From a bacterium (GTDB lineage: Bacteria > UBP6 > UBA1177): DNA of 64,000 bases. The position numbers and the translations under genes were made by a program. The DNA lies in the NCBI GenBank assembly GCA_017538365.1, contig JAFYIZ010000012.1:60920-124919 (forward strand), read 5' to 3'. Within the stretch, counting starts at the first letter, position 1. Every line of letters begins with the position of its first letter. Shown here in pieces: positions 2,103 to 29,460 of the stretch. The notes beneath the pieces are model-generated. The model made no database searches. It was not told where the DNA came from and saw only the letters and a list, made by a program, of their open reading frames with translations.

Positions 2103-2242
2103 TTTCCCCTCCGGAAGCAAAAAACGTGTGAAAAATAGCCTTTTTAAGGCTTCGTGTCAATAAAGTTTCCCTTTTAAAACTGGACAAAAGAGCCTCTTCC
2201 TATATTATGCCGCGTTTTATTAAGTTTTTTTGTCAAAGTGCC

Positions 2243-3589
2243 ATGAAAAAAATTATTTTTTCAGTTTTATCACTGATTTTACTGGTTGTTTTCGTTTCAT
2301 GCGAAGATTCCACCCTTCCAGATCTTCCCGATATGGAAGAATCAATGGATGTCGATGCTTTTGAAATAAGCGATGAAAAAACTGCTGACGATTCAGATCA
2401 GACTCACGCAAACGACAGCGGCGAACCGGCTGATGACGGCAATGAAACAAACCTTCCCGATGACAACCCGACGGAAAATCCCGACGAAACGCCCGATGAA
2501 GAGGAACCCGAACCTGTAATAAAGTCAGCTCACCTTCTTGTCGCGACTGTCGGCGGATATGATGTTCCGATGAGCGGCCACGTTTACTATGCAGAAAACG
2601 AAAGCCTCACTGACGGATTAAAGGAAATACCGGTTGAAGGCGGTATGGGAAGTGATGACGGCGCCGATCTCAACGTCGCAGCTTTTGCAGATGGTTTCAC
2701 TGTCATTGGAAGACACGATTCCTCTTCTCTTTATTTTTTTGACGACAATTTCGAGTTTGAGCAGGAAATAAAAGTAAAACCGGACACTTACATCAACATG
2801 CAGGATATGGTTTTTAACCCGTTCAAGAACGAATTCATCGTTTCTGCTCTAAATTCCGACGCTTTCGATTCCAAAACAACTTTCTCAAATAAGATCTTTA
2901 TTTTCAAAAAAAATTCACCTGAAACCGCCGCAACGCTGGAAATAAGTGACAACGAGTCGGCAAGCCCGGCAAAAATGAAAGTTGTCGGCAAAAAACTGTT
3001 TGTTGCTCTGCAGAACCTCGAGAACAACACTTCGGCAAAAGGCGAGATCGCGGTCGTTGACCTTGAAGATTATTCAGTCGAAAGAATAACTCTTCCGACA
3101 ACCAACCCGACAGGAAAAATCGAATACAACAAAAATGTTGATAAAAACCACATCTATCTTACGACGACCGGCAACTGGAAACAGGGTGACGGTGCACTTT
3201 TGCAAGTAAATATCGACACTTACGAAGTTAAAAAAGTTCTCAGTGAGTCAGAAGAGGAAAACAATATTTTAGACGGCGATTTTGTTGATCTCTCTATTGC
3301 CGATAACGGTAATTTCTTCATAATTTTTTCAAACAACATCCTTTACAACGACAACAGCCTGCTGCTTTACAAACCGAACGAAGGCAAGATTTCAAAAATA
3401 GATTCTGGTATCAACGCCTTTGCGGCAAATCCGATTGACTACAGCTCGGTCAGCGGAAGAGTTTACTACTTTGTCGATGAAAAATCGGACACATATCTGA
3501 AGGCTCTCGACAGCGAAAGTTACGAAGAGATGAAACTCCTTTTAGACTACGGCCCAGCCGCTTTAAGAGTAAAATACGATTACAAGTGA
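2243..3589 (+). CDS. Hypothetical lipoprotein with an acidic D/E/P-rich N-terminal low-complexity region
   Basis: Lipoprotein signal MKKIIFSVLSLILLVVFVSC. Acidic linker PDETPDEEEPEP. Start taken at the internal ATG preceding the signal peptide. Confidence 0.6.
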   Translation: MKKIIFSVLSLILLVVFVSCEDSTLPDLPDMEESMDVDAFEISDEKTADDSDQTHANDSGEPADDGNETNLPDDNPTENPDETPDEEEPEPVIKSAHLLVATVGGYDVPMSGHVYYAENESLTDGLKEIPVEGGMGSDDGADLNVAAFADGFTVIGRHDSSSLYFFDDNFEFEQEIKVKPDTYINMQDMVFNPFKNEFIVSALNSDAFDSKTTFSNKIFIFKKNSPETAATLEISDNESASPAKMKVVGKKLFVALQNLENNTSAKGEIAVVDLEDYSVERITLPTTNPTGKIEYNKNVDKNHIYLTTTGNWKQGDGALLQVNIDTYEVKKVLSESEEENNILDGDFVDLSIADNGNFFIIFSNNILYNDNSLLLYKPNEGKISKIDSGINAFAANPIDYSSVSGRVYYFVDEKSDTYLKALDSESYEEMKLLLDYGPAALRVKYDYK

Positions 3590-3595
3590 GGCAAT

Positions 3596-5170
3596 ATGAA
3601 AACAGTAAACGGAAACGACTTAACGATTGAAGATCTCTGCGCCGTTGCGTGCGGAAACGAAAAAGTTCAACTTCCAGAAGACAAAAAATTCTGGGAAACT
3701 TTGGAAAGATCGCGCAAATTTTTGGAAGATTACGTCAAAACCGGTGTTCCGGTATACGGCGTCACGACTGATTTCGGCGACAGCTGCAACAACCAGATAA
3801 GCGTTGACAAAGCGGGAGAACTTCAGCGGACGATCTGCACTTACCACGGTATCGGCGTAGGCCCGAAATTCGATCACACGACAGGGAGAGCCGTTGTTCT
3901 GGCGCGTCTCAACAGCAACGTGAAAGGCGGGCACTCGGCAATACGTCCCGAACTTGCAAAAATGTTAGTCACTCTGCTCAATAAAGACATAATCCCGGTG
4001 ATCCCGCAGCTCGGTTCTGTCGGTGCATCGGGTGATCTCACACCTTTGAGCTACCTTGCGGCAGTAGTCATGGGAGAGCGCGACGTCTACTACAAAGGAA
4101 AGATCGTTCCCGCTTCTGTTGCTCTTAAAGCAGAAAACATAAAACCGCTTCCTATCGAAGCAAAAGAGGGACTGGCGCTTATGAACGGAACGAGTGTTAT
4201 GACTGCAGTTGCAGCTTTAGCTTGGAAAAAAGCGGAAAGACTCGCTAAAATATCGGATTTTTTGACCTCGGTAACTTCCGAGATAACCCGCGGCAAAGAT
4301 ACTCCTTTCGCAGCAAAAGTAAGCGAAATGAAAAACCACCGCGGACAGTGCGATTCAGCCGCATACATCCGTGAAGTGATCAAAGATTCAAAGCGCGTTT
4401 TCAGATACGAGGATTTCCTCAAAAGCAATATCGATTCGATCGAAAACAAAGGCTTCATCAAGCAGCAGAATAAAATTCAGGACAGATACTCCATCCGCTG
4501 CGCGCCGCAGATTACAGGCGTTTACCGCGACACACTGCGCTTTGCGAGAGACCTGATAACCGAAGAACTCAACTCTTCGAATGACAATCCGCTCGTTGAT
4601 ATCGAAAGCGGACGCATTTTCAATACCGGAAATTTCTACGGCGGCCACATCTGCGCGGCGTGCGATTACCTTAGGACAGCACTTGCCAATATCGCAGACC
4701 TCTCGGACAAACAGGCGGAAGTCATTATCGACGGAAAATTCAACGGGCTCACTGAAAACCTGATCCCGTTCACGCCTGAAGACCATCCTCGGGCAGGCTT
4801 AAGACTCGGCTTTAAGGCAGTCCAGATAACGATAAGCGCGATCCGCGGAGAAGTCGTCACATACTCATTCCCAGTCAGCATCACGAGCGCACCGACCGAA
4901 GCTCTCAATCAGGACAAAGTTTCGATGGGAACGATCTCGGCACGCAAGCTTGCAGAGCAGATAGACCTCGTTTTCCTGCAGTTCGCAGCGCATCTTCTTG
5001 CCGCAATGCAGGCAGTCGACCTTGCCGGAAAGGATGAATTTTCATCATTCACCCGCAAAGTCCATGATGAAGTCCGCAGAATCAGCGCATTCGTTGAAGA
5101 TGACCGCGCTTTGGATAAAGAAGCGGAAGCTCTCGCAGAGTGGTTGAAAACAACTGGGATTTTTGGGTAA
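3596..5170 (+). CDS. Aromatic amino-acid ammonia-lyase family protein (HAL/PAL/TAL/aminomutase family, MIO cofactor)
   Basis: GSVGASGDLTPLSYLA with the Ala-Ser-Gly MIO-forming triad. Full-length 524 aa. YH at the substrate-selectivity switch where HAL has SH. Confidence 0.85.
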   Translation: MKTVNGNDLTIEDLCAVACGNEKVQLPEDKKFWETLERSRKFLEDYVKTGVPVYGVTTDFGDSCNNQISVDKAGELQRTICTYHGIGVGPKFDHTTGRAVVLARLNSNVKGGHSAIRPELAKMLVTLLNKDIIPVIPQLGSVGASGDLTPLSYLAAVVMGERDVYYKGKIVPASVALKAENIKPLPIEAKEGLALMNGTSVMTAVAALAWKKAERLAKISDFLTSVTSEITRGKDTPFAAKVSEMKNHRGQCDSAAYIREVIKDSKRVFRYEDFLKSNIDSIENKGFIKQQNKIQDRYSIRCAPQITGVYRDTLRFARDLITEELNSSNDNPLVDIESGRIFNTGNFYGGHICAACDYLRTALANIADLSDKQAEVIIDGKFNGLTENLIPFTPEDHPRAGLRLGFKAVQITISAIRGEVVTYSFPVSITSAPTEALNQDKVSMGTISARKLAEQIDLVFLQFAAHLLAAMQAVDLAGKDEFSSFTRKVHDEVRRISAFVEDDRALDKEAEALAEWLKTTGIFG

Positions 5171-5396
5171 ACGTAGAGATGTTTCACTAAATGTCTCAAA
5201 ATTTAAAGAATTTATAATTTTTAGTTTGCTTTTAATTAAAAAATGCATACAATGACTAGACGATTTTTTTGATGAGTTTATTAGATGCCTTGGAATTATA
5301 TTGACAAATATCTGAAACATAGAATAGAAAACTTTGATTTTCATAAATCATCAACTATGTCGACAAAAAGAATTAAAACATTAAAGGAATGGGAAA

Positions 5397-6515
5397 ATGC
5401 CCGTAAAAGATTTGCATGCACACCCTTTTGATGAGGGAACTATCACCAAACTCGAAATATTTGAAAATTATGCCAAAGAATGGCTGCCTACTTTTATTAT
5501 GAGTTATCCAAACAAAGATTTATGGATGTTCGACTTTTTTGCTGGAACAGGCAAAGATCAGAATGGAGTTGCCGGCACTCCCATTCGCTTGTTACAACAA
5601 GTTAAAAGCCAGGCTGGCAACATTTTCAATCAAAAATGTAAAATCAATATTTGTTTGAACGAACTCGATGAAAACAAGTTTAATTCTATGCAAATATGCT
5701 GTGACGAGTTTGTACATAGTAATAATGAATTGCTAAGACTCTATGATAAATATTTATTTCTTCACTATCGTAATGGTGATTTTGCCGAACTTTTTCCTAA
5801 GACATTAGATACTATAAAAGAAAACCCTTCCCTGCTGTTTCTTGACCAAAACGGAATGAAATTTCTGGCTGATAAATATATTATGAATTTAGAAAGCTTG
5901 CCACATACAGATTTCTTGTATTTTTTATCTTCCTCATATGTTTTGAGATTTGGGAATACTCCTGAGTTTCAGACAAATTTAAGGTTGGACATGGAAAAAA
6001 TAAAGGAGAATCCATACAAGTATGTTCACAAAAACATTCTTGAGCAACTAAAAAACAAATTACCCAATGATTCTGATCTAAAATTATATCCTTTCACAAT
6101 CAAAAAAGGAGCAAATATTTATGGTATAATTTTTGGAGCAAAACATCCATTGGCAGTTGACAAATTTCTCAAAACTGCTTGGAATAAAAACAACATCAAT
6201 GGAGAAGCCAACTTTGATATTGATGAAGACAATAAAAAATGTCAATTGACTATATTTGGAGAAAAACCTTTGACAAAAATAGAAGGTTTCCAACAGCGGT
6301 TGCGAGAATTGATACTGAACGGAGATATAAAAACCAATCGTGAAGCTTATGATTACACAATTTCTCAAGGACACATTGACAAACATGCGGCTGAAGAAAT
6401 TTCAAAAATGAAAAAAGAAGGACTTATAGATTTTGAAGGAAGAACTCCTTTGGTAAACTATGAACAAACATATAAAAACAAGCGAATAATAACATTCCAG
6501 GTAATAAAAAAATGA
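5397..6515 (+). CDS. Hypothetical protein, putative three-Cys-motif partner protein (TcmP-like). N-terminus carries a DFFAGTG Rossmann-like motif.
   Basis: 372 aa. AT-rich codon usage. ATGA overlap with the downstream DUF5131 gene. The pairing with a Gp37/Gp68 protein is the basis of the TcmP guess. Confidence 0.45.
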   Translation: MPVKDLHAHPFDEGTITKLEIFENYAKEWLPTFIMSYPNKDLWMFDFFAGTGKDQNGVAGTPIRLLQQVKSQAGNIFNQKCKINICLNELDENKFNSMQICCDEFVHSNNELLRLYDKYLFLHYRNGDFAELFPKTLDTIKENPSLLFLDQNGMKFLADKYIMNLESLPHTDFLYFLSSSYVLRFGNTPEFQTNLRLDMEKIKENPYKYVHKNILEQLKNKLPNDSDLKLYPFTIKKGANIYGIIFGAKHPLAVDKFLKTAWNKNNINGEANFDIDEDNKKCQLTIFGEKPLTKIEGFQQRLRELILNGDIKTNREAYDYTISQGHIDKHAAEEISKMKKEGLIDFEGRTPLVNYEQTYKNKRIITFQVIKK

Positions 6516-7237
6516 AAACGACAAAAATAGAATGGACTGATAAAACATGGAATCCTGTTACAGGATGCACCAAGATTTCGCAGGGATGCGTTCATTGCTA
6601 CGCCGAAACGATGACCCGCCGACTTAATGCAATGGGATTGGAGAAATACGCAAACGGATTCAATGTCACTCTGCATGAAGATTGTCTATCCGAACCATTG
6701 GCATGGAAACAACCTCACACCATTTTTGTTTGTTCAATGAGTGACTTGTTTCACAAGGATGTTCCTTTTGAATTTATAAACAAGGTTATGGAAACCATAC
6801 GTATGACACCTCAGCACCGTTATCAGCTATTGACCAAACGGGCGGAACGCATGGCTGAATACTTTCTATCACATGATATTCCGCAGAACGCATGGTTGGG
6901 AGTTACAGTTGAAGTTCAATCCTCTAAATCCAGAATAGAATCTCTGCGCTCACTTGACGCACCTATCCGCTTTCTCTCTTGCGAGCCTTTGATCGAAGAT
7001 TTGGGAACTTTGAATTTGGAGAACATTGACTGGGTTATTGTAGGAGGGGAAAGCGGACCGCAAGCAAGACCTATGAAAGAAGAGTGGGTAAAATCAATAA
7101 AAGAACAAGCCGAACGTCAGGGATCAGCCTTTTTCTTCAAACAATGGGGCACCTGGGGCAGCGACGGTATCAAAAGAAACAAACACAAAAACGGAAAACT
7201 GATTGACGGAAAAATTTTTCAGGCAATGCCGGCTTAA
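6512..7237 (+). CDS. Phage protein Gp37/Gp68 family (DUF5131) three-Cys-motif protein
   Basis: N-terminus MKTTKIEWTDKTWNPVTGCTKISQGCVHCYAE matches the family hallmark (IEWTD..WNP..GC..S.GC..CYA). 241 aa. Confidence 0.7.
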   Translation: MKTTKIEWTDKTWNPVTGCTKISQGCVHCYAETMTRRLNAMGLEKYANGFNVTLHEDCLSEPLAWKQPHTIFVCSMSDLFHKDVPFEFINKVMETIRMTPQHRYQLLTKRAERMAEYFLSHDIPQNAWLGVTVEVQSSKSRIESLRSLDAPIRFLSCEPLIEDLGTLNLENIDWVIVGGESGPQARPMKEEWVKSIKEQAERQGSAFFFKQWGTWGSDGIKRNKHKNGKLIDGKIFQAMPA

Positions 7238-7451
7238 ACTTCATTTCGAATAAATCTTACTGGAATTGACAGATGTTTACACCTCAAAAGCCTTAAAATT
7301 TCTCGCAAGACTTCTTAGCGGTTTCCGCCTCGTTGCTTGGGATTTTCACAAGTAAAACATGACTTTTTAAGTTGTTTTTTAAGAAAAACTAAAGATAATC
7401 TCACGGCGTTTTGTAACGATAGGGTTAAACCAAAAATTTGAGGGGCAAAAC

Positions 7452-9530
7452 ATGGATTTAAAAGACATTTTAAAGGATAGCAACTACAGTCTTGATCAAT
7501 TTGATAAAGAAAAAATCCTGAAATTAGAGCAAAAAATCAAAGAAAAAGAAGTCAAAGGCATAATAACTCCCTATGTCAACTGTATCGTTAGGAATAAAGA
7601 GATAAAACTTACTCCTGAAGAAATTGTCCGCCAACTTTATCTCATGGTTTTAATTGAAAATTTTCATTATCCTGTTTCAAGGATGGATGTTGAATATGTG
7701 GTTACTTTCGGCAGAGATAAAAAGCGTGCCGATATTGTCATTTTCGATAAGGATCAAACCTACACTCCATATATTGTTGTTGAGCTGAAAAGTCCTAAAT
7801 TGAAAGACGGCAAAGAACAGCTTAAAAGCTATTGCAACGCCACAGGCGCACCGATCGGTGTTTGGACAAACGGCAACAGTATTTCTTACTATCACCGCAA
7901 AGACCCGAATTTCTTTGAGGATATTCCGATCATTCCAACAGCCGAAGAAAAGCTTTCGGACATATTGAGCGAGCGTTGGCTTATCGATGATTTGGTGAAG
8001 AAAGACAAACTGGTCAATGAGCGAAAATCGCTGAAAGACTTAATTTTGGAAATGGAAGACGAAGTCCTTGCCAATGCCGGTGTCGATGTCTTTGAAGAGG
8101 TTTTCAAGCTGATTTTCACAAAATTATATGATGAAATGGAAAGTGGTCGAAAGAAAGACCGCCATTTGCAGTTCCGTAATTATGGTGACACTGAAACCGA
8201 ACTGAAAGAGAAGCTTCAAAACCTTTTCAACGAAGCCAAGGAAAAGTGGTCTGGTGTTTTCTCTGACGATGCAAAACTGATGCTCACGCCTTCGCATTTG
8301 TCGGTTTGCGTTAGTTCCCTGCAGGATGTGAAACTTTTCAACTCGAATTTGGATGTGGTCGATGAAGCTTTTGAATACTTGATAAACAAAAGCAGCAAGG
8401 GTGAAAAAGGTCAATATTTTACACCTCGCTATGTTATCGATATGTGTGTGCGGATGCTGAATCCTTCGGAAAAGGAAACAATGATTGATACTGCTGCGGG
8501 CAGTTGCGGTTTTCCTGTACACACAATTTTCTATGTTTGGCAAAAGATTTTAGAAAGCAAGGGACTTAAAAAGAGCCATCTTTTCACTTTGGAACAAAAG
8601 CCGGCAGAATGCACTGATTATGTGCAGAATAAAGTGTTTGCCATTGATTTTGACGAAAAAGCTGTGCGTGTTGCAAGAACCTTAAACCTGATCGCAGGTG
8701 ATGGACAAACTAATGTAATGCATCTCAACACTTTAGATTATGAGCGTTGGGACGAAAATCTGAAAGACGAGAATTGGCAGGAAACTTATATCGATGGTTG
8801 GAATAAATTAAAGAAAATGCGTGCCAACAAAAACAGCAATCGTGATTTTCAATTTGATGTTTTAATGGCGAATCCTCCATTTGCTGGAGATATAAAAGAA
8901 AGCCGCATTTTATCAAAATATGAACTTAGCAAAAATGCAGCAGGTAAAATGGCTAGCAAGGTTGGGCGCGACATTCTTTTCATTGAACGCAATCTTGACT
9001 TCCTGAAACCAGGCGGACGCATGGCTATTGTTTTGCCGCAAGGCCGTTTTAACAACAGCAGTGATAAATACATCCGAGATTATATTGCCGAGCGTTGCCG
9101 CATTTTGGCAGTTGTTGGTTTGCACGGAAATGTGTTCAAACCGCACACTGGAACAAAAACAAGCGTATTGTTTGTGCAGAAATGGGATGAATTGCTTTGC
9201 CCCAAGAAAGATGATTATCCGATTTTCTTTGCCACCATGCAGGAGCCGAGTAAGGATAACAGCGGAGAAAAGATTTTCGTCAAAAAAGGCGATTATCCGC
9301 CAGCACAAAAACCGATTTATGATGTTTATAGCAAAAACCAAGACACCGGTCCTTGCGATCCTCTTCCACGTTATGAGGCCTCGCCCAAAGAAAACAACGA
9401 ATATTTGTTGGATTCACATGGCCATTTGATAGTAAAACACGACCTTTTCAATCACGATGGTTTGACCAAAGACGGAATCGCTGAAGCCTTTGCCGAATTT
9501 GCCAAAAAGGAGGGGCTAAGTTTTTTTTGA
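7452..9530 (+). CDS. Restriction-modification enzyme, BcgI-like A subunit: N-terminal PD-(D/E)xK nuclease domain fused to an N6-adenine DNA methyltransferase
   Basis: N-terminus RADIVIFD…YIVVELKSPK (D…ExK). Methyltransferase motif IV LMANPPFAGDI and a motif I-like DTAAGSCGF. 692 aa. Confidence 0.75.
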   Translation: MDLKDILKDSNYSLDQFDKEKILKLEQKIKEKEVKGIITPYVNCIVRNKEIKLTPEEIVRQLYLMVLIENFHYPVSRMDVEYVVTFGRDKKRADIVIFDKDQTYTPYIVVELKSPKLKDGKEQLKSYCNATGAPIGVWTNGNSISYYHRKDPNFFEDIPIIPTAEEKLSDILSERWLIDDLVKKDKLVNERKSLKDLILEMEDEVLANAGVDVFEEVFKLIFTKLYDEMESGRKKDRHLQFRNYGDTETELKEKLQNLFNEAKEKWSGVFSDDAKLMLTPSHLSVCVSSLQDVKLFNSNLDVVDEAFEYLINKSSKGEKGQYFTPRYVIDMCVRMLNPSEKETMIDTAAGSCGFPVHTIFYVWQKILESKGLKKSHLFTLEQKPAECTDYVQNKVFAIDFDEKAVRVARTLNLIAGDGQTNVMHLNTLDYERWDENLKDENWQETYIDGWNKLKKMRANKNSNRDFQFDVLMANPPFAGDIKESRILSKYELSKNAAGKMASKVGRDILFIERNLDFLKPGGRMAIVLPQGRFNNSSDKYIRDYIAERCRILAVVGLHGNVFKPHTGTKTSVLFVQKWDELLCPKKDDYPIFFATMQEPSKDNSGEKIFVKKGDYPPAQKPIYDVYSKNQDTGPCDPLPRYEASPKENNEYLLDSHGHLIVKHDLFNHDGLTKDGIAEAFAEFAKKEGLSFF

Positions 9531-10951
9531 ATAGCCCTTTCGACGAACTGAAATATAAAGAGCTGTTGAAAGGGCTGGAGGCGAGTGAGATCTTATTTTC
9601 ATATGTAAAAACTCAAACTGACATTTTGCGGTTAGATAGTTTCTATTATTCAAAAGAGTTTTTATCAGATGAAATCATTATCTCAAAAACAACCAATAAA
9701 ACCTTAAAAGAGCTAAATGCAAGTCTTTTAAGTTTTGGTGCATATTCATTGAACAATTTTGTTGAGTATAAGGATTCTGGGATTCCATTTGTTCGTGGAT
9801 TAAATATGAAGAATGGTGTGTTAGATTTTTCTGACACAATTTATATTGATGCGAACGCGCACAAATTGCTTTGGAAATCAGAGGTGAAACCAAACACGAT
9901 TTTGCTTTCTATGTCTGGAACTATTGGCGAAGTTGCTATTGCTGTGCAAGAGTATCAATATCCAATGAATTCGAATCAAGACATCGCAAAAATCAGATTA
10001 AAAAGAGAAAGCATACGACCGTGTTATTTATATGCATTTTTACGTTCCAAATATGGGCAAAACTTTTTAAAAAGAGAAGCGCGTGGTAGTGTGCAACAAC
10101 ATGTGTTTTTATCACAAATAGAAACCATCAGAATTCCTTTACTGCCTGATTCATTTCAATTACAAATAGAACAACTCGTCAAGTCTGCACATTCTAATTT
10201 ATATCAATCAAAAGCTCTTTATTCTGATGCGGAGAATATGCTCTTATCTGAAATTGGCTTGCAAGATTGGCAGCCAAACAATAATCCAGTCAATATTAAG
10301 CAACTAAAAGAATCATTTTGGGCAAGTGGAAGGTTGGATGCTGAGTATTATCAGACAAAATATGATGAAATAGAATCAGTTATTACAAAATACAAATATG
10401 GTTACGACAGAATAGAGAATCTGTTTTCTCAGAACACAGAAGTTTGTGATTACAAAGAGGAAGCTTACAATTACATCGAAATAGGCGATATCAACATAGG
10501 TGACGGCTCAGCTAATTATAATTTAGTATCTACAGAAAATCTGCCTGACAATGCGAAGCGTGTTCTTCACAAGAATGATATATTAGTTTCGAAGGTAAGA
10601 CCTTATCGTGGAGCTGTTTCAATTATTGATTTTGATGATGAAAAATTGATTGGGAGTGGAGCATTTACCGTCTTGCACGAAAAAACATCTTACAAAAAAG
10701 AAGTCTTGCAAATACTTTTACGCACCCAAATATATAAGGATTGGCTGTTAAAATGGAATGTCGGCAGTTCCTATCCTGTTATAAAAGATGAAGATATTAT
10801 GAATTTGCCAATTCCATTATTTCCAAATACAGTTCAAACCAAAATTGCAGAATATGTCCAAAAGAGCATATTTTTGAGAAATGAGGCTAAACACCTTTTG
10901 GAAGAAGCCAAAATGATGGTAGAAAAAGAGATTGAGGAAGGAACTTTTTAA
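9527..10951 (+). CDS. Restriction-modification specificity subunit (HsdS/BcgIB-like, two target-recognition domains)
   Basis: 474 aa with two TRD-like halves separated and terminated by coiled-coil conserved regions. 4-nt overlap with the methyltransferase gene. Confidence 0.7.
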   Translation: MNSPFDELKYKELLKGLEASEILFSYVKTQTDILRLDSFYYSKEFLSDEIIISKTTNKTLKELNASLLSFGAYSLNNFVEYKDSGIPFVRGLNMKNGVLDFSDTIYIDANAHKLLWKSEVKPNTILLSMSGTIGEVAIAVQEYQYPMNSNQDIAKIRLKRESIRPCYLYAFLRSKYGQNFLKREARGSVQQHVFLSQIETIRIPLLPDSFQLQIEQLVKSAHSNLYQSKALYSDAENMLLSEIGLQDWQPNNNPVNIKQLKESFWASGRLDAEYYQTKYDEIESVITKYKYGYDRIENLFSQNTEVCDYKEEAYNYIEIGDINIGDGSANYNLVSTENLPDNAKRVLHKNDILVSKVRPYRGAVSIIDFDDEKLIGSGAFTVLHEKTSYKKEVLQILLRTQIYKDWLLKWNVGSSYPVIKDEDIMNLPIPLFPNTVQTKIAEYVQKSIFLRNEAKHLLEEAKMMVEKEIEEGTF

Positions 10952-10975
10952 TATTTTTGATTTGGGATAAATACC

Positions 10976-11803
10976 ATGGGCAAAACAGTAACAACGTATC
11001 TGATTGACGGAGATCCTAAAGGAACTCAGTATGTGTTCATCAGCAACAAAATTTGCCAGATGTATGTAATTCCGCGTTCAAACCTTTCGATTCTGAATGA
11101 GCGACCGGAATTGCAGACACCGGCATTTTATATTTTGCTGGGAGAAGACGAATCCACAAAACCAAAGGCGTATATCGGTGAGACAGAAAACTTTCGTGAA
11201 CGTGTAAAAGACCACGAAAGCAAGAAGGAATTTTGGCAAAAAGCACTGATTTTCATCGCAAAAGATGCCGCTATGACAAAAGCAGATGTGCAATACTTGG
11301 AACATAAAGCTATTGCAGAGGCAAAAGCATCCAATACTTTTGTGCTGAACGAAAACAAGCAGACGCCGAAAGCACCGAATCTTCCTGAGTACAGAAAAGA
11401 TGACATGGATGGATTCTTTGAAGATGTGAAATTCCTGACATCTTTTATCGGCTGCAATATTTTCGATGTGGTCAGAACGAAAGAAAAACACCTGTTCTAC
11501 ACAAAAGGACGCGGTTGCGATGCTAAAGGCTTTTATGATGCTGACGGCTTTACTGTTCTGAAAGGAAGTATTGTCGCAAAATCATCAACACCGTCGTTTG
11601 CATGGAAAGAAAAACGCGAGCAATTGCTTAAAGAATATACTTCCATGAATGGAGAAAAATTGGTATTGGAATCCGACAAAACCTTTTCCAGTCCAAGTAC
11701 CGCATCCACGTTTGTTTTAGGACGACAATCCAATGGCTGGAGTGATTGGAAAGACAAAGACGGACAAACATTAGACGCTGTCTACAGAAAACAGTTGGAA
11801 TAA
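10976..11803 (+). CDS. GIY-YIG nuclease family / DUF4357 domain protein
   Basis: Motif AYIGETENFRERVKDHESKK (GIY-YIG-like, with Arg and His). C-terminal FTVLKGS…NGWSDW matches DUF4357. Typical location downstream of hsdS. Confidence 0.6.
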   Translation: MGKTVTTYLIDGDPKGTQYVFISNKICQMYVIPRSNLSILNERPELQTPAFYILLGEDESTKPKAYIGETENFRERVKDHESKKEFWQKALIFIAKDAAMTKADVQYLEHKAIAEAKASNTFVLNENKQTPKAPNLPEYRKDDMDGFFEDVKFLTSFIGCNIFDVVRTKEKHLFYTKGRGCDAKGFYDADGFTVLKGSIVAKSSTPSFAWKEKREQLLKEYTSMNGEKLVLESDKTFSSPSTASTFVLGRQSNGWSDWKDKDGQTLDAVYRKQLE

Positions 11804-11829
11804 AACACAAGCGATAACGGAGGCACACC

Positions 11830-12306
11830 ATGAGCAAAAGTTTAGTTATCTATTTTTCGGCTGCCGGACACACGAAACTGAAGGCACTGCAGCTTGCAGA
11901 TGCAATCGGAGCCGACACTTTCGAGATCGAACCGGTGAAAAAGTACACGAAAGCCGATCTTCTGTGGATGAATCCGCTTTCAAGAAGTTTCCGCGAAGTT
12001 GCGACAAGAAAAACCAAACGCCCCGAGATCGTCGACAAAGAGCTTGATTTAACGAGCTACGACAAGATTTTTCTCGGTTTTCCGATCTGGGGCTGGGCGG
12101 CACCTTCTATCGTCAATGCCTTTTTGGAAAAACACGATTTTTCGGGAAAAACCATCATCGTTTTTGTAACGAGCGGCGGCACGACAAAGCTCGACGGCTG
12201 CGTAAAATCACTTATTCCTTCCCTTTCGGAAACAACAATAGTCAAAGAAGGCAAAGTTCTCAACGGAGAGTGGTCTAAAGAAGATTTGGCCGCTTTTGCT
12301 GAATAA
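11830..12306 (+). CDS. Flavodoxin-family protein
   Basis: MSKSLVIYFSAAGHTK…IIVFVTSGG flavodoxin-like fold. GGAGG RBS. Confidence 0.65.
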   Translation: MSKSLVIYFSAAGHTKLKALQLADAIGADTFEIEPVKKYTKADLLWMNPLSRSFREVATRKTKRPEIVDKELDLTSYDKIFLGFPIWGWAAPSIVNAFLEKHDFSGKTIIVFVTSGGTTKLDGCVKSLIPSLSETTIVKEGKVLNGEWSKEDLAAFAE

Positions 12307-12352: not shown

Positions 12353-14008
12353 TTAAAGAACTACAGATTCTTTGTGAACGCCGAAAACTTCTTCGAGCGT
12401 GCCAGCGATTTCACCAAGAGTTGCATACTGTTTTACGGCATCGAGGATTTTCGGCATAAGGTTGTCGCTTGTCTGAGCCGTAGCCTTGATGATGGCAAGG
12501 TGTCTTTTGACTGCGTCGTTGTCGCGGGCTTCCTTGACAGCCTTGATCTTTGCGATCTGAGCGACCTGGATCGACGGGTCGACTTTGAGAAGGTTTGCCG
12601 GAGCGGGTTCCTTGATCTGGAACTTGTTGACGCCGACAACGACCTGTTCGCCGCTTTCGACTTCAAGCTGATAGTGGTAAGCGCTGTCCTGAATTTCCTG
12701 CTGGACGAAACCCTTTTCGATCGCTTCGACCATTCCGCCGAGCTCGTCGATTCTTGCGATGTATCCTTTTGCTTTCTCGTAAATGCTGTCGGTGAGAGCT
12801 TCGATGTAGTAACTTCCTGCGAGCGGGTCGATCGTGTCTGCAACACCGCTTTCGTAAGCGACTATCTGCTGCGTTCTGAGTGCGATTCTTACGCTGTCTT
12901 CAGTCGGAAGTGCAAGCGCTTCATCACGGCTGTTGGTGTGGAGCGACTGGGTTCCGCCCAAAACTGCCGCAAGTGTCTGGATCGCAACACGGACGATATT
13001 GTTGTCGGGCTGCTGTGCTGTGAGCGTGCATCCTGCAGTCTGAGTGTGGAAACGGAGCATCTGGGATTTTGCGCTCTTTGAGTTGAAGCGGAATTTCATG
13101 ATCTCAGCCCAAAGTCTTCTTGCAGCGCGGAATTTTGCAACTTCCTCAAGAAGGTTGTTGTTCGCGTTGAAGAAGAAGGAAAGACGCGGCGCGAAAACGT
13201 CGACATCAAGACCTGCCTTGATCGCAGCTTCAACATAAGCGATACCGTCAGCAAGCGTGAAAGCGACTTCCTGAACTGCGTTGGAGCCTGCTTCGCGGAT
13301 GTGGTAACCCGAAATCGAGATCGTGTTCCATTTCGGAACGTTCTGCGCGCAGAAAGCGAAAATATCGGTGATGAGTCTCATCGAAGGTTTCGGCGGGAAG
13401 CGGTAAGTGCCTCTCGCGATGTATTCTTTGAGAATGTCGTTCTGAATGGTTCCCGTGAGTTTGTCAGCCGAGAAACCCTGCTTTTCAGCAACTGCAATAT
13501 ACATAGAAAGGAGAACAGAAGCGGTTCCGTTGATCGTCATTGAGGTTGAAACATCACCCAGCGGAATACCGTCGAAAAGGATTTCCATATCTTTGAGCGA
13601 GTCGATCGCAACACCGACTTTGCCGACTTCACCGTCACTCATCGGATGATCCGAGTCGTAACCGATCTGCGTCGGAAGGTCGAAAGCGACCGAAAGACCG
13701 GTCTGACCGTTGCCGAGAAGGTATTTGTAACGTTTGTTCGATTCTTCTGCCGTACCGAAACCTGCATACTGACGCATCGTCCAGAATCTGCCGCGGTACA
13801 TCGTGGGCTGAACGCCTCTGGTGAACGGATATTCGCCCGGCACGCCGCGTGTTTCAAGGTATTTCTGATCATCTTCCGCCGGAATGTAGAGCGGTTCTAC
13901 CGTCTCACCGAACGAAGTTTTGAAGCGCTGCTTTCTTTCGGGGAACTTCGCGACTGCTTTGCCGTAACTGCCGGCTTTCCAATTCTCGAACGTCTCTTTT
14001 ACTGTCAT
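12353..14008 (-). CDS. Methylmalonyl-CoA mutase family, large (substrate-binding TIM-barrel) subunit. No B12-binding domain.
   Basis: [61 protein letters not shown] is a near-canonical MCM signature. 551 aa. Confidence 0.85.
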
Positions 14009-14179: not shown

Positions 14180-17100
14180 CTAGAGGCTGCTGCAGGTTGC
14201 AAGTTTGCCGTATTCCGCCATGACTTCCTCTGCGGAAAGCGCACTTCCGATGATTCTGACATCATCGACCGAACCGTAGAATTCGCCGTAAGAGCCGCTG
14301 CCGATATTTGTGGGCGAATATACATTTCCATGTGATGCCGCAGAACCCGTTGTGACAAGAACTCCGTCAAGATAGATGGAAGGAGTTTTATTGTTGAAGA
14401 CTACAGCGACATGACGCCAACCGGTACCGATGTCTCCGCTGTAAACAGCAAGACCAGGCATGTAGCCGTCACCGTGTGCTGTTGCAAGAATTCCGTTTGT
14501 TCCAACTGAGAGTCCTGCTCCGGCATTGCCGCCTTCATGGTTAGCACCGAATAGATAATGCTGACCGCTTGTTCCTGCATACTGACCAGTATCCAGAGTG
14601 ATCGTGTAGCCGCTGGTTACCTTTACCCAAGCCATCATCGTGAAACTGTTTGTATATTTGGAAATACCGGTGGAGACGGTGGTGCTTCCGGTGAAATTGT
14701 ATGCCTTACTACGCTTTCCAGAAGAATCCCAAGAACCACCGCTTATCGAATACGATCCGCCCGCTGTTCCACTGTTTGCAGTCGTAGAACCGGAACCTTC
14801 GTTCAGTTTGAGATAAAGAGGAGCACTCTTTAAAGAATCGCTGCAAGAAACATAATCCAAAGTCAAGTTGTCAATGCAGTAACGGTCGGCACTTGTACTT
14901 ACCGATCCATCCTTACGATACTTGAACAGTATTCTGTGTTTTCCCGGTGCGAGGTTTGAAATTGAAACGGGATTCCACGTTAAGTGATCAGAACCGTATG
15001 TGCAAACTATCTGCGTCGCAGAATTACTGCAGGAATTGCTGTTATAGTCTATATCGCTCTGCGTGGGATCGAGATATACATGAAAAACGTCCCAGTTTTT
15101 CTCGGAAGTTCCGGTATAACTGAAACTCAAGGTTCCTTTTTCATACTCACTGGGGATAGTAACTTCCACAATAAGGTTAGCTACAGTGCCATGATAATCT
15201 CCAGTGTTTGTGGAACACATTGCGTAACTTCCCTCTTTCGGTCCTGGCAATGAAGCGGAGTTTAAACCATTACCGAGACCGTAAGAACCCGATGAAGTCC
15301 TACCCCAGTACGTATTACTTACCTGACTTATCCAATCTCCCGGAAGGTTAGATTCAAAACCCCAGCTGTAATGAGTTTTGATGCACTTGTTGTTTTTCCA
15401 ATCATAACCGCTGTTGCACTTGTATTTGCATGTAGATGCGCTTGAAGAAGTGCCATAGCTTGCCGAGCTGTCAGCCGGCGCAAATGTCGAACCGTTCCAA
15501 GTCTGCGTATAAGTCTGAGTGTCGGAATTAGTGTAGGTCCAAACACTGTTTGCAGGTTTTCCTGAGCATGTAAAGGTCTTAGTTTCGGCCTTGCATGTTG
15601 AACTCGAGCTGTCCCAAGGATAGTGAGTCTTGCACTTGAACCTGCAAGATGTCGTGCTTGCAGTATCGTTATGGGTCAGAGTGGAATCAGCCGGATTCCA
15701 AGCCGAACCTGTCCAATTCTGCTGGTATGAACTTACAGAGTTCCATTCAGCATTTGCAGGCAAAGTACCGCAGTTCTGTGTTTTCGTGTTGGAGACACAC
15801 GATACACCGCTGTTTTCGGTATGGAAAGAGTTGATGCACTTGTATCTGCACTCGGTCGAACTTGCAGTCGTGTTGTAAACACTTGTCGCAGAAGGCTGCC
15901 AGCTGGAGCCGTTCCAAGTTTGTGTTATGCTCGAAACTGTGTTCCAATCAGTATTTGCAGGTTTAGCAGAGCAGTCTGCAGAATGAGAGTCGGCTTTGCA
16001 ATATGAATTGTCTGTCCAAGTGTAGTTCGTGTTGCACTTGTAACGGCACTCTGTCGTGCTTCCTGTCGTATTGTACTGCCATGTAGCAGCCGGCTGCCAT
16101 CCGCCTGACGGAGTCCAATTCTGCGTGATACTTGAAACTGTATTTGGAACTGCACCTGACGGAATTGTGCCACAACTTACTGTTTTCTTGTTGATGCAGA
16201 GTCCGCCTTCATAAGTATAACCAGATTTGCATTTGAAGCGGCACTGGTTGGCGTCAGGAGTTGTATTGTAGCTTCCTGTATTTGACGGTGTCCAACCTGA
16301 ACCGTTCCAAGTCTGCTTGATAGTCTGACTGTTGGAGTTGTTGTAAGTCCATTCAGAATTTGTAGGCTTTGTTGTGCACTCAACATACTTTTCATTAATA
16401 CACTGCGAATCTTCATAGGTATAGCCGCTTGCACATTTAAAGTAGCAGGCATCTGCATAAGTGCTTGTGTTGTAACTTCCTGCGTTGTCAGGTGACCAGG
16501 AACCACTGCTGAAACTCTGCGTGATGGTTTTGGATGTTGAATTGTTAGAACTCCATACAGCATTTACTGGCAGACCTGTGCAGGCTATTTTCTTGTTATT
16601 GGGTGCTATAAAATTGGATGTGTTTGTTTCAAACTGACACGAATCGGTGCACGGTGCGTATTTTTCCAATGTTATTGTTACACTTCCGCTACCATCGTTG
16701 GTTGATGTAGTATAACTCCCGCTTACAAAGTAATAATCACTTCCTGAAGTCGTTGGATAATAGTAACTGTAGGAAGAATCGGAATATCTTCCGCCGTTAC
16801 CGCCGTTACCGCCGTCAGCACCATAAGAACCGGCTCCAGAACCGCCTGAGCCTCCGCTAGATCCTGAAGCACCGTCACCGGCGGATGCATCAGAGTACCA
16901 CCAGTATCCGCCTTTTCCGCCGCCGCCGCCGCCGCCGCCGTAGGCTTCGATCAAAGTCTGAGTACCGATTTTAACACATGATGAACCGCCGCCTGCGCCG
17001 CCTGCACCAGATCTATAGCTGCTACTATGCCCTTCTTTGCCGCCGCTGCTGTCTTTTCCTTTGTGGCAACCCGATCCACCAGTTTGAGCATCATATCCTC

Positions 17101-29446: not shown

Positions 29447-29460
29447 TTTTCCCTCCACCG

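Follow-up and report, generated by a model that had tools for sequence, protein, structure and literature searches.

Effector genes may be carried inside restriction-modification (RM) operons, as is the case for PrrC in EcoprrI and for RloC. Among the RM enzymes themselves, those of Type IIB are defined by cleavage on both sides of the recognition site (PMC3592470), and the assemblies described are A2B for BcgI (PMC3592470) and (RM)2S for BsaXI (PMC11997821). In the multi-gene system MADS (mad1-8), MAD2 is a predicted methyltransferase, mad2-4 and mad6-8 are needed for protection, and the detection model treats MAD6, MAD7 and MAD8 as mandatory (bioRxiv 10.1101/2023.03.30.534895). Fusions of the RAMA domain, a predicted m6A discriminator, to URI/GIY-YIG nucleases are known from N6A RM systems (PMC4738411). 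Those with GIY-YIG nucleases have been put forward as candidate 6mA-dependent Type IV enzymes (PMC11037411). Biochemical work on MPND did not confirm that its RAMA domain prefers methylated adenine (cited in PMC11037411). The DUF5131 family falls in radical-SAM megacluster 5-2 (RadicalSAM.org), next to spore photoproduct lyase (PMC9477430). In a panel of P. aeruginosa strains, roughly one in three is reported to carry the PADLOC candidate PDC-M30, whose published record consists of prediction counts, with no defence phenotype (PMC10855318); the literature holds no experimental support for a defence role of either PDC-M30 or PDC-S14. The locus analysed here is an ordinary defence hotspot, in which two such already catalogued candidate modules accompany an RM system of Type IIB style.

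Organisation and composition of the locus

Five co-directional ORFs occupy positions 5172-11795 on the + strand of the window (the whole 64-kb stretch of DNA that was analysed). These code for a TcmP protein (g1, 5397-6515, 372 aa), a DUF5131 protein (g2, 6512-7237, 241 aa), a fused restriction-modification subunit (g3, 7452-9530, 692 aa), a specificity (S) subunit (g4, 9527-10951, 474 aa) and a GIY-YIG nuclease-DUF4357/RAMA protein (g5, 10976-11803, 275 aa), which starts 24 nt after g4. The conserved anchors of the slot are an aromatic-amino-acid/HAL-type lyase (3596-5170, + strand; PF00221, 510 bits) upstream and a flavodoxin (11830-12306, + strand; PF12682, 147 bits) downstream, with a methylmalonyl-CoA mutase (12353-14008, - strand) beyond the latter. 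ORF calls and profile searches agree with the gene order and flanks given in the first-pass annotation, and its domain calls for all five island genes hold. Of the two ATGA overlaps that it listed, the one at 6512 between g1 and g2 is present, but the overlap at 9527 between g3 and g4 is TTGA; g4 starts with TTG and AAGGAGG is found 13 nt upstream of this codon.

The five genes fall into two transcription units, g1-g2 and g3-g4-g5, between which lies a 214-bp intergenic gap (7238-7451) that is probably the promoter region of the second unit. An AT-rich spacer of 226 bp (5171-5396; GC 0.243) at the left island junction is the probable promoter region of g1-g2, and a sigma-70 consensus scan of this spacer gave matches no better than those in shuffles. 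The GC content of the genes is 0.324 (g1), 0.431 (g2), 0.400 (g3), 0.338 (g4) and 0.411 (g5), against 0.448 for the whole window and 0.46-0.52 for the flanking genes. The AT-richness previously ascribed to the entire island is thus real (GC 0.24-0.43), but it is strong only in g1, g4 and the spacer. Profile searches of the five island ORFs returned no integrase or transposase match, the repeats flanking the island are short and at chance level, and no tRNA genes occur in the window.

Occupancy of the slot in related genomes

Homology to island-free relatives stops at 5171 and restarts at 11796, and the island limits proposed earlier lie within ~35 bases of this variable segment. The relatives share the flanks (AMP-ligase, an unknown gene, lyase, flavodoxin and mutase), and their slot holds either Fic and HTH genes only (L189-192) or SIMPL and Fic genes (L188). 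The presence of other genes in the same slot indicates that the segment is accessory and, together with its deviant composition, supports the view that it was acquired. The synteny of the five-gene island is conserved as a block in two close lineages, so that its acquisition does not date from very recent times; its accessory status nonetheless stands through the alternative occupancy.

A natural deletion of ~4 kb (7473-11508) in a sister lineage (L001-L006) has removed g3 and g4 together with the region of g5 that codes for GIY-YIG. At the junction in L001, codons 1-7 of g3 are fused directly to approximately codon 178 of g5; g3 is reduced to its initial 21 nt, and a non-homologous 135-nt spacer is found in place of the gap between g2 and g3. 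Both g1 (94% aa identity) and g2 are full-length in this lineage, with intact frames on at least six contigs, and the AT-rich spacer upstream of g1 is likewise kept, within a 90%-identical block (2172-7241). A copy of g3 with at least 90% identity occurs with an S gene in another genome (L183), where g5 and the TcmP/DUF5131 pair are absent. The first recognition domain of g4 (~9580-10205) forms a homology gap relative to a further sister lineage (L184).

The restriction-modification unit

Profile searches place an HSDR_N_2 domain at 55-162 and an N6_Mtase domain at 301-607 of g3, and the motifs D94 and E111-x-K113 (PD-(D/E)xK), DTAAGSCGF (346-354) and NPPF (474-477) are intact. Judged by its sequence, g3 is thus predicted to be an N-terminal PD-(D/E)xK nuclease joined to a gamma-class N6-adenine methyltransferase, the architecture of Type IIB. 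Its best solved relative is RM.BsaXI (8w0p; E 9.7e-25), with a match that covers the methyltransferase region (residues 212-578) only. Methylase_S matches g4 in two stretches, corresponding to two target-recognition domains, and no ResIII or helicase ORF that could supply an ATP motor subunit was found within 5171-11829. The locus thus resembles BcgI and BsaXI in that the nuclease and the NPPF methyltransferase are joined in one polypeptide, with a separate HsdS-like subunit carrying two recognition domains and no ATP motor in the locus. The nuclease-methyltransferase plus S system recognised in the first-pass annotation is therefore borne out by the domains and the BsaXI match. Two-sided cutting and a two-site requirement characterise BcgI and BsaXI and may extend to g3-g4, whose operon, unlike theirs, ends in an extra GIY-YIG-RAMA gene. 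By analogy with these two enzymes, g3 and g4 would form an (RM)2S complex. Recognition of a bipartite site would fall to the two recognition domains of the S subunit, marking of host adenines to the NPPF methyltransferase and cutting of unmarked DNA to the N-terminal PD-ExK domain.

Both proteins are also homologous to MADS components along nearly their full length, g3 to MAD2 and g4 to MAD5 (PADLOC mad2 and mad5), with scores of 313 bits against an equivalog cut-off of 720 for MAD2 and 193 bits against 400 for MAD5. An identity with MADS was rejected, as the mandatory MAD6-8 as well as MAD3-4 are absent from the island and g1, g2 and g5 match no mad model in PADLOC.

The GIY-YIG-DUF4357/RAMA gene

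The g5 protein scores above the cut-off for DUF4357 (65.7 bits against 38.4) and for GIY-YIG (23.2 against 22.6 bits), and carries the motifs FYILL (51-55), AYIGE (65-69), FRERV (73-77) and YLEHK (107-111), whereas its RAMA match of 25.2 bits lies below the cut-off of 35.2. PADLOC assigns it to PDC-S14 (289 bits). It is like the PDC-S14/GIY-YIG-RAMA fusions, for which a Type IV role is a proposal, in having the same two domains and the same association with N6A RM systems, and differs from them in that the Pfam RAMA match is sub-cut-off while DUF4357 passes.

Fifty loci with at least 5 kb of upstream sequence were surveyed for the neighbours of g5 homologues. An N6A methyltransferase (Type IIB-like, IIG-like or III) is encoded at most four genes upstream in 31 of these, and nine more contain an S subunit, an AAA_15 gene or HsdR only, in line with the earlier observation that GIY-YIG-DUF4357 proteins recur next to RM loci. 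The homologue usually comes last, at the 3' end, in an adenine-methylase RM operon, whether of Type I, IIB-like, IIG-like or III; complete examples were found in Prevotella (Type I) and Treponema (IIB-like). Identity between homologues is 79% or more, both across RM types and across two or more bacterial phyla, and the sequence hardly varies with RM specificity. The usual 3'-end position and this degree of identity across RM types are what the present survey adds to the picture of GIY-YIG-RAMA proteins. A variable cargo gene typically lies before the g5 homologue, and the effectors observed in the surveyed RM operons include AAA_13, AAA_15/21, SIR2, AbiH, GmrSD, TIR and Schlafen proteins. As in the PrrC and RloC operons, RM genes are followed by a variable effector in one co-directional operon. 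The TcmP/DUF5131 pair occupies this effector position in two Bacteroidales MAGs, in the orders IIB-like RM, S, TIR, TcmP, DUF5131, g5 (L038) and IIB-like RM, S, a 197-aa gene, AAA_15/21, TcmP, DUF5131, g5 (L040). The present locus is unlike the PrrC-type layout in that the pair forms its own unit upstream of the RM genes.

The RAMA-type domain of g5 is a predicted reader of the adenine-methylation state, and g5 may add a modification-sensing (Type IV-like) cut, travelling as the last gene of adenine-methylase RM operons whatever their type. Alternatively, g3 and g4 could act as a methyltransferase only, the N-terminal nuclease domain of g3 being inactive or put to other uses, and g5 could be the real nuclease, giving a three-gene RM system in which a RAMA-guided GIY-YIG domain cuts unmethylated DNA. 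The best PADLOC models for g3 and g4, a Type I methyltransferase and a Type I specificity subunit, would suit such an arrangement, as would the description of the homologous MAD2 as a predicted methyltransferase (bioRxiv 10.1101/2023.03.30.534895), the short distance between g4 and g5 and the usual 3'-terminal place of the homologues in N6A-methylase operons. This alternative is nevertheless unlikely, given that D94 and E111-x-K113 of g3 are intact, that the best solved relative of g3 is the Type IIB enzyme BsaXI, that a g3 copy at least 90% identical exists with S and without g5, and that g5, near-constant in sequence, also trails Type I, IIG-like and III systems with nucleases of their own.

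The TcmP/DUF5131 pair

The identities proposed for the first two ORFs were both recovered above cut-off, g1 matching TIGR04474 (TcmP, three-Cys-motif partner protein) with 123 bits against 53 and g2 matching PF07505 (DUF5131, 'phage Gp37/Gp68') with 356 bits against 28.9. PADLOC gives full-length matches to PDC-M30A for g1 (458 bits) and to PDC-M30B for g2 (387 bits), the latter fitting PDC-M41B equally well. As the two genes are adjacent and ATGA-overlapped and match the A and B profiles, with no sequence-level difference from PDC-M30, their sequences identify them as this PADLOC candidate. The model for radical SAM mobile pair protein A (TIGR04471) was rejected at 100 bits, under its equivalog cut-off of 355 bits.

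Structural models suggest that g1 has an RlmJ-like class-I methyltransferase fold with a C-terminal winged helix and, weakly, that g2 has a spore-photoproduct-lyase-like fold. The g2 model has a pLDDT of 66.6, with core beta/alpha repeats at 80-94 and a poor N-terminus, and at this moderate confidence the six top Foldseek matches are all weak hits to spore photoproduct lyase (E 6e-3 to 2e-2), with NifB also among the weak top structural matches. No sequence similarity is detectable between g2 and spore photoproduct lyase or between g1 and RlmJ. The cysteine motif of g2 is C19-x6-C26-x2-C29, in contrast to the canonical radical SAM motif C-x3-C-x2-C that is found in the lyase, while g1 has D-Q-N-G at the site where RlmJ, the 23S rRNA m6A2030 methyltransferase, has its D-P-P-Y motif. 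The g2 protein, as a spore-photoproduct-lyase-like radical-SAM enzyme, would work with the RlmJ-like SAM-binding winged-helix g1, and the two would carry out chemistry on nucleic acid, with DNA bases as the most likely target.

Eighty species-level TcmP loci were surveyed, and DUF5131 lies directly downstream of TcmP in 78 of them. Seventy-eight of the 80 likewise contain neither a GIY-YIG-DUF4357 homologue nor a close RM/S homologue; a g5 homologue adjoins the pair in only two, with no close g3 or g4 homologue present. The neighbours of the pair are diverse, with 130 Pfam families among 135 downstream genes and 136 families among 143 upstream genes, and include Type I, IIG and III RM genes, McrBC, D12 and C5 methylases, and the AAA_15/21, KAP, PIN and Schlafen families. 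Restriction or abortive-infection genes occur beside the pair in at least 15 of the 80 loci by seed search, and in more by Pfam tallies. This defence-rich neighbourhood substantiates the earlier statement that the pair recurs beside RM genes.

A role outside defence is a doubtful but appreciable possibility, in which the pair would be a mobile DNA/RNA-modification or repair module hitch-hiking in variable regions, for example one that reverses lesions as spore photoproduct lyase does or one with an epigenetic function derived from phage. The occurrence of DUF5131 in 180 phage records and of TcmP partners in Gordonia phage Jablanski and Synechococcus phage Ssp-JY39 would fit such a role, and the commonest upstream neighbours in the 80 loci are Radical_SAM (11 hits) and 2'-5' RNA-ligase-like (7 hits) genes. 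In Jablanski, however, the pair adjoins the integrase in the lysogeny region, a common place for prophage defence genes. The enrichment of the pair beside restriction and abortive-infection genes, its insertion as cargo inside the RM operons of the two Bacteroidales MAGs and its status as a PADLOC candidate also argue for defence, whereas a published record of prediction counts only (PMC10855318) leaves room for the non-defence role.

Independent modules or a single system

The sequence evidence suggests three separable, catalogued modules: the TcmP/DUF5131 pair, the BcgI/BsaXI-style RM enzyme and the GIY-YIG nuclease. The island is thus likely to be an accessory, variable slot with two units as independent, stacked defence layers, rather than five genes of one obligate system. 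Unit 1 (g1-g2) would be the autonomous two-gene module PDC-M30, and unit 2 (g3-g4-g5) a Type IIB-architecture RM enzyme followed by a nuclease. The first-pass annotation had instead raised the possibility that all five make up a single system, composite or novel. In an integrated system of this kind, resembling MADS or BREX, the pair would make or read a DNA mark used by the methylase, the S subunit and the RAMA nuclease. The genes are indeed co-directional and tightly packed and their block is conserved in two lineages, the same five component types recur in another order in the two Bacteroidales MAGs, and the homologues of g3 and g4 in MADS, MAD2 and MAD5, belong to a multi-gene system. Furthermore, TcmP/DUF5131 lies directly after g5 in two loci (L119 and L148), so that some functional interplay is possible. 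Such integration is nonetheless very unlikely, as the sister lineage with the ~4-kb deletion has kept the pair with intact frames on at least six contigs, 78 of the 80 TcmP loci are without g5 and close RM/S relatives, and RM and S occur alone in L183. In addition, g5 attaches to four RM types and accompanies many other cargo genes, the two units are separated by the 214-bp gap, and PDC-M30 and PDC-S14 are already separate PADLOC candidates.

A broader reading concerns the adenine-methylase restriction operons of gut and rumen bacteria, which may be modular platforms that begin with RM genes (5' end), continue with an exchangeable cargo effector and are capped at the 3' end by a near-invariant GIY-YIG-RAMA nuclease. 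The nuclease gene may double as a recombination anchor for cassette swapping, and TcmP/DUF5131 may be one such cargo, a DNA-directed spore-photoproduct-lyase-like radical-SAM enzyme guided by its RlmJ-like winged-helix partner, whose DNA chemistry may interact functionally with the m6A mark read by the RAMA nuclease. Taken jointly, these proposals are improbable.

With the two units read as stacked, independent layers, the relatives provide a natural genetic series, consisting of the full island, an S-domain-swapped island, a pair-only deletion and Fic-filled slots, which can guide the comparison of constructs. As TcmP/DUF5131 stands alone in nature, PDC-M30 can be dissected as a two-gene unit, for which a concrete hypothesis is that a radical-SAM enzyme and its RlmJ-like partner act on DNA. 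The usual 3' place of the GIY-YIG-RAMA gene, irrespective of the type of adenine methylase, similarly offers a handle on whether RAMA reads m6A in DNA.

Gene content and composition of the island

Five genes on the forward strand, g1 to g5, lie between a HAL-type aromatic-amino-acid lyase gene (3596-5170) and a flavodoxin gene (11830-12306), which is followed by a methylmalonyl-CoA mutase gene on the reverse strand, and the open reading frames and domain matches bear out the first-pass annotation on this arrangement. The overlap between g1 (5397-6515) and g2 (6512-7237) is ATGA, as that annotation had it at 6512. It had also placed an ATGA overlap at 9527, between g3 (7452-9530) and g4 (9527-10951), and this was slightly wrong, as the junction reads TTGA and g4 starts with a TTG located 13 nt 3' of an AAGGAGG motif. 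A distance of 24 nt separates g4 from g5 (10976-11803). Together with the overlaps, this short distance and the 214 bp gap between g2 and g3 suggest a layout of two units, g1-g2 and g3-g4-g5. A promoter and terminator scan of the sequence gave counts that were not above those of shuffled sequences.

The island is AT-rich, as was originally described, and this is clearest in g1 (GC 0.324), g4 (0.338) and the leading spacer (226 bp, 0.243); g2, g3 and g5 have GC contents of 0.431, 0.400 and 0.411, respectively, compared to 0.448 for the whole window and 0.46-0.52 for the flanking genes. Further afield, a 5092-aa giant ORF (14180-29458, reverse strand), with Laminin_G_3 as its sole recorded domain, directly follows the mutase gene, and other very large ORFs occur at 32016-38345 (reverse strand, 2109 aa) and 44414-49594 (forward strand, 1726 aa).

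Domain identities of the encoded proteins

The TcmP and DUF5131 identities first proposed for g1 and g2 held up in profile searches. The g1 product matches TIGR04474 (TcmP) at 123 bits, against a cut-off of 53, carries a GMT-wHTH domain at its C-terminus and matches the PADLOC model PDC-M30A over its full length (458 bits). That of g2 matches PF07505 (DUF5131, 356 bits), PDC-M30B (387 bits) and PDC-M41B (383 bits), and contains the three-Cys motif C19-x6-C26-x2-C29. Neither protein had a match at E <= 1 in a PDB sequence search, and the same search with g5 returned a chance match only.

The proposed Type IIB-like restriction-modification (RM) system with its specificity (S) subunit was likewise recovered. 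The fused g3 protein combines an HSDR_N_2 domain (residues 55-162, including D94 and E111-x-K113) with a gamma-class N6-adenine methyltransferase (DTAAGSCGF at 346-354, NPPF at 474-477), its best solved relative being RM.BsaXI (E 9.7e-25), and the g4 protein is HsdS-like with two Methylase_S stretches. Although g3 and g4 resemble MAD2 and MAD5 of MADS, membership of that system was rejected because the scores fall far under the equivalog cut-offs and the mandatory MAD6-8 genes are absent. The g5 protein contains GIY-YIG (52-112) and DUF4357 (214-266) domains, as well as a sub-threshold RAMA match, and corresponds to PADLOC PDC-S14 (289 bits). An overlap between PDC-S14 and GAO_29 has been published, yet no GAO_29 model matched g5, and this assignment was set aside. 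In the deposited NCBI annotation of the metagenome-assembled genome, the proteins are named TcmP, phage Gp37/Gp68 family, N-6 DNA methylase and GIY-YIG nuclease.

A variable slot in related lineages

Contigs from three other samples match the window at 99.97% identity or more and carry the same island. In a sister lineage (L184-187) the order is lyase, g1, g2, g3, g4, g5, an extra 324-aa gene and flavodoxin, and the first recognition domain of the S protein (window 9580-10205) is replaced. This is the sole stretch of g1-g4 without nucleotide homology to L184, with both sides being 82-89% identical, and it looks like a recognition-domain swap by which the specificity of the RM system would change.

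In another lineage (L001-006), where g1 is 94% identical at the amino acid and ~90% at the nucleotide level, window positions 2172-7241 and 11510-12292 are shared and the intervening stretch is missing, with the first seven codons of g3 joined to approximately codon 178 of g5. This ~4-kb deletion has removed the GIY-YIG domain along with the RM and S genes and has left g1 and g2 at full length. In L001 (7864-8180), window 7452-7472 is joined to ~11509-11803, such that the g3 start is out of frame with the g5 tail and a new ATG at the junction opens a 98-aa ORF with DUF4357 only. The junction is seen in five of the six contigs, from different samples, these being the five that reach it.

The view that the island was acquired is upheld by further relatives, in which the same slot contains a single Fic + HTH gene (L189-192) or SIMPL and Fic (L188) between the same flanks as in the window, namely an AMP-ligase, a gene without assigned function, the lyase, flavodoxin and mutase. 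Nucleotide homology between the window and L189 stops at 5171 and restarts at 11796. As no integrase, transposase, flanking direct repeats or tRNA were found in the island, it was likely exchanged through its conserved flanks. A 460-aa ORF without Pfam or NCBIfam match (2207-3589, forward strand) has a counterpart (447-468 aa, no Pfam match) 5' of the lyase gene in most relatives, even where the genes further upstream differ; the exception is L184-187, where a 655-aa FG-GAP protein takes its place.

Occurrence of the TcmP/DUF5131 pair

With each GTDB species represented by one genome, a scan yielded 80 loci with g1 homologues (48-70% identity), mostly in Bacteroidota, with some in Acidobacteriota, Spirochaetota and others. 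A g2 gene lies directly 3' of g1 in 78 of these, a close g3 or g4 homologue occurs in none, and g5 is adjacent in two. Within two genes on each side, the Pfam diversity is extreme, with 130 families among 135 proteins downstream and 136 among 143 upstream. Prominent among them are methylase (D12, C5, N6, N6_N4), restriction (ResIII, HsdR, HsdS, Eco57I, McrB) and other defence families (AAA_14/15/21, KAP, PIN, Schlafen, YhcG). According to a seed search, at least 15 of these loci have RM or McrBC genes no further than 10 kb away. McrBC lies 3' of one pair that is 69% identical.

DUF5131 was also found in 180 phage records, and in Gordonia phage Jablanski and Synechococcus phage Ssp-JY39 profile scoring identified its convergent neighbour as a TIGR04474 TcmP; the Jablanski locus adjoins an integrase. 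A tblastn search with g1 against 50,697 phage records gave no match, and gp38 of phiE125, upstream of gp37, was ruled out as a TcmP. The near-constant pairing, the diverse and defence-rich neighbours and the phage occurrences make the pair look like an autonomous mobile two-gene module of variable, defence-rich regions, which fits its listing as the candidate PDC-M30. No functional study emerged from literature searches on DUF5131, TcmP (TIGR04474), Gp37/Gp68 and PDC-M30, the PDC-M30 literature being confined to prediction counts (PMC10855318).

Several loci contain further associations. L007 (8068-9378) contains an additional DUF5131 gene that is longer (267 aa) and has a PEMT/ICMT-family methyltransferase as its partner, as do L008-L010, L012 and L026. 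These two genes lie ~2 kb 5' of the TcmP/DUF5131 pair, with McrBC, Vsr and NUDIX downstream; this methyltransferase may represent a different partner class for DUF5131. In Chitinophagaceae-type loci (L055, L056, L060, L071, L072, L076 and L090), ORFs of 365-385 aa lie 5' of the pair, in most cases along with ORFs of 204-206 aa. Judging by their sizes, these would be the Radical_SAM and 2'-5' RNA-ligase-like families, counted 11 and seven times upstream over all 80 loci, and the pattern may be due to vertically inherited gene order or to a functional connection with DNA repair. Flavodoxin_4 homologues occur within 10 kb in two of the 80 loci (L027 and L026, the latter being the same locus as L007), plus the window lineage. 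This co-occurrence is about that expected by chance by rough estimate, and the flavodoxin was dropped as a dedicated reductant of the radical-SAM protein.

Occurrence of g5 and the RM genes

Homologues of g5 (275 aa, at least 79% identical) form more than 120 clusters, those of Prevotella and Treponema among them. In Prevotella sp. E13-17, g5 is the end of a Type I operon (HsdR, S, S, AAA_13, HsdM, AbiH, g5, Schlafen), and the order in Treponema is HSDR_N_2-N6_Mtase, S, AAA_15, g5. Among 80 metagenome loci, the 50 with at least 5 kb upstream were used for counts; 31 of them have an N6A methyltransferase (IIB-like, Type III Mod + Res or ~1300-aa IIG-like) within four co-directional genes 5' of g5, and a further nine have an S subunit, an AAA_15 gene or HsdR only. 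Recurrence beside RM loci, suggested from the outset for both extra modules, was thus found for g5 as well as for the pair. A variable cargo gene is usual between the RM genes and g5 (AAA_15/21, SIR2, GmrSD + AAA_13, AbiH, Schlafen or YgjP). A TcmP/DUF5131 pair forms part of the cargo in L038, together with TIR, and in L040, together with a 197-aa gene and AAA_15/21; a more distantly related pair lies 3' of g5 in L119 and L148.

The window copy of g5 (10976-11803) shares 90.5% nucleotide identity with that of a Treponema sp. metagenome-assembled genome (L097, 8001-8828) and 84.9% with that of the sister lineage (L184, 13580-14407), to which g1-g3 are 89% identical. This closer relationship to the Treponema copy hints that the g5 end of the island has undergone recombination or transfer.

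A copy of g3 + S that is at least 90% identical occurs without g5 and without the pair in L183 (8001-16326). There, the next genes are one encoding 248 aa, one with a RelA_SpoT domain, an acetyltransferase and RhuM, with an Anti-Pycsar-like metallo-beta-lactamase gene convergent to these and an integrase 4 kb upstream. The same RM is thus present in a different defence/anti-defence setting.

Predicted activities and modularity

BcgI forms an A2B assembly (PMC3592470) and BsaXI an (RM)2S assembly (PMC11997821), and by analogy g3 and g4 would form a complex, with recognition of a bipartite site by the S subunit, adenine methylation by the NPPF domain of g3 and cleavage of unmodified DNA by its PD-ExK domain. 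The sequence shows the domains and motifs, and the assembly and cut positions are predicted by this analogy.

The RAMA domain was originally described from its fusions to nucleases of N6A RM systems, URI/GIY-YIG among them, and is predicted to discriminate m6A (PMC4738411); GIY-YIG-RAMA fusions have been put forward as candidates for 6mA-dependent Type IV enzymes (PMC11037411). The near-unchanged state of g5 while the adjoining RM type and specificity vary favours a putative role in reading the state of adenine methylation, either independently of sequence or in a fixed context, through which g5 would add a second cut to a methylated or unmethylated target.

The structure model of g2 is of moderate confidence overall (pLDDT 66.6) with a good core, and its top six Foldseek matches are all spore photoproduct lyase (E 6e-3 to 2e-2), in agreement with RadicalSAM.org, which places DUF5131 beside this enzyme (PMC9477430). 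In a working model, the pair may act on nucleic-acid bases through SAM-dependent radical chemistry, with the winged-helix protein providing the targeting and DNA marking, damage or repair as possible outcomes.

The first-pass annotation had further raised the possibility of a composite five-gene defence system. This reading is unsupported, as each module is seen without the others and a natural deletion separates them. All five component types recur in other orders, so a small probability of functional interplay among the modules is retained. The island as a whole falls within known kinds, comprising an RM system of known type and two extra modules that are both catalogued candidates.
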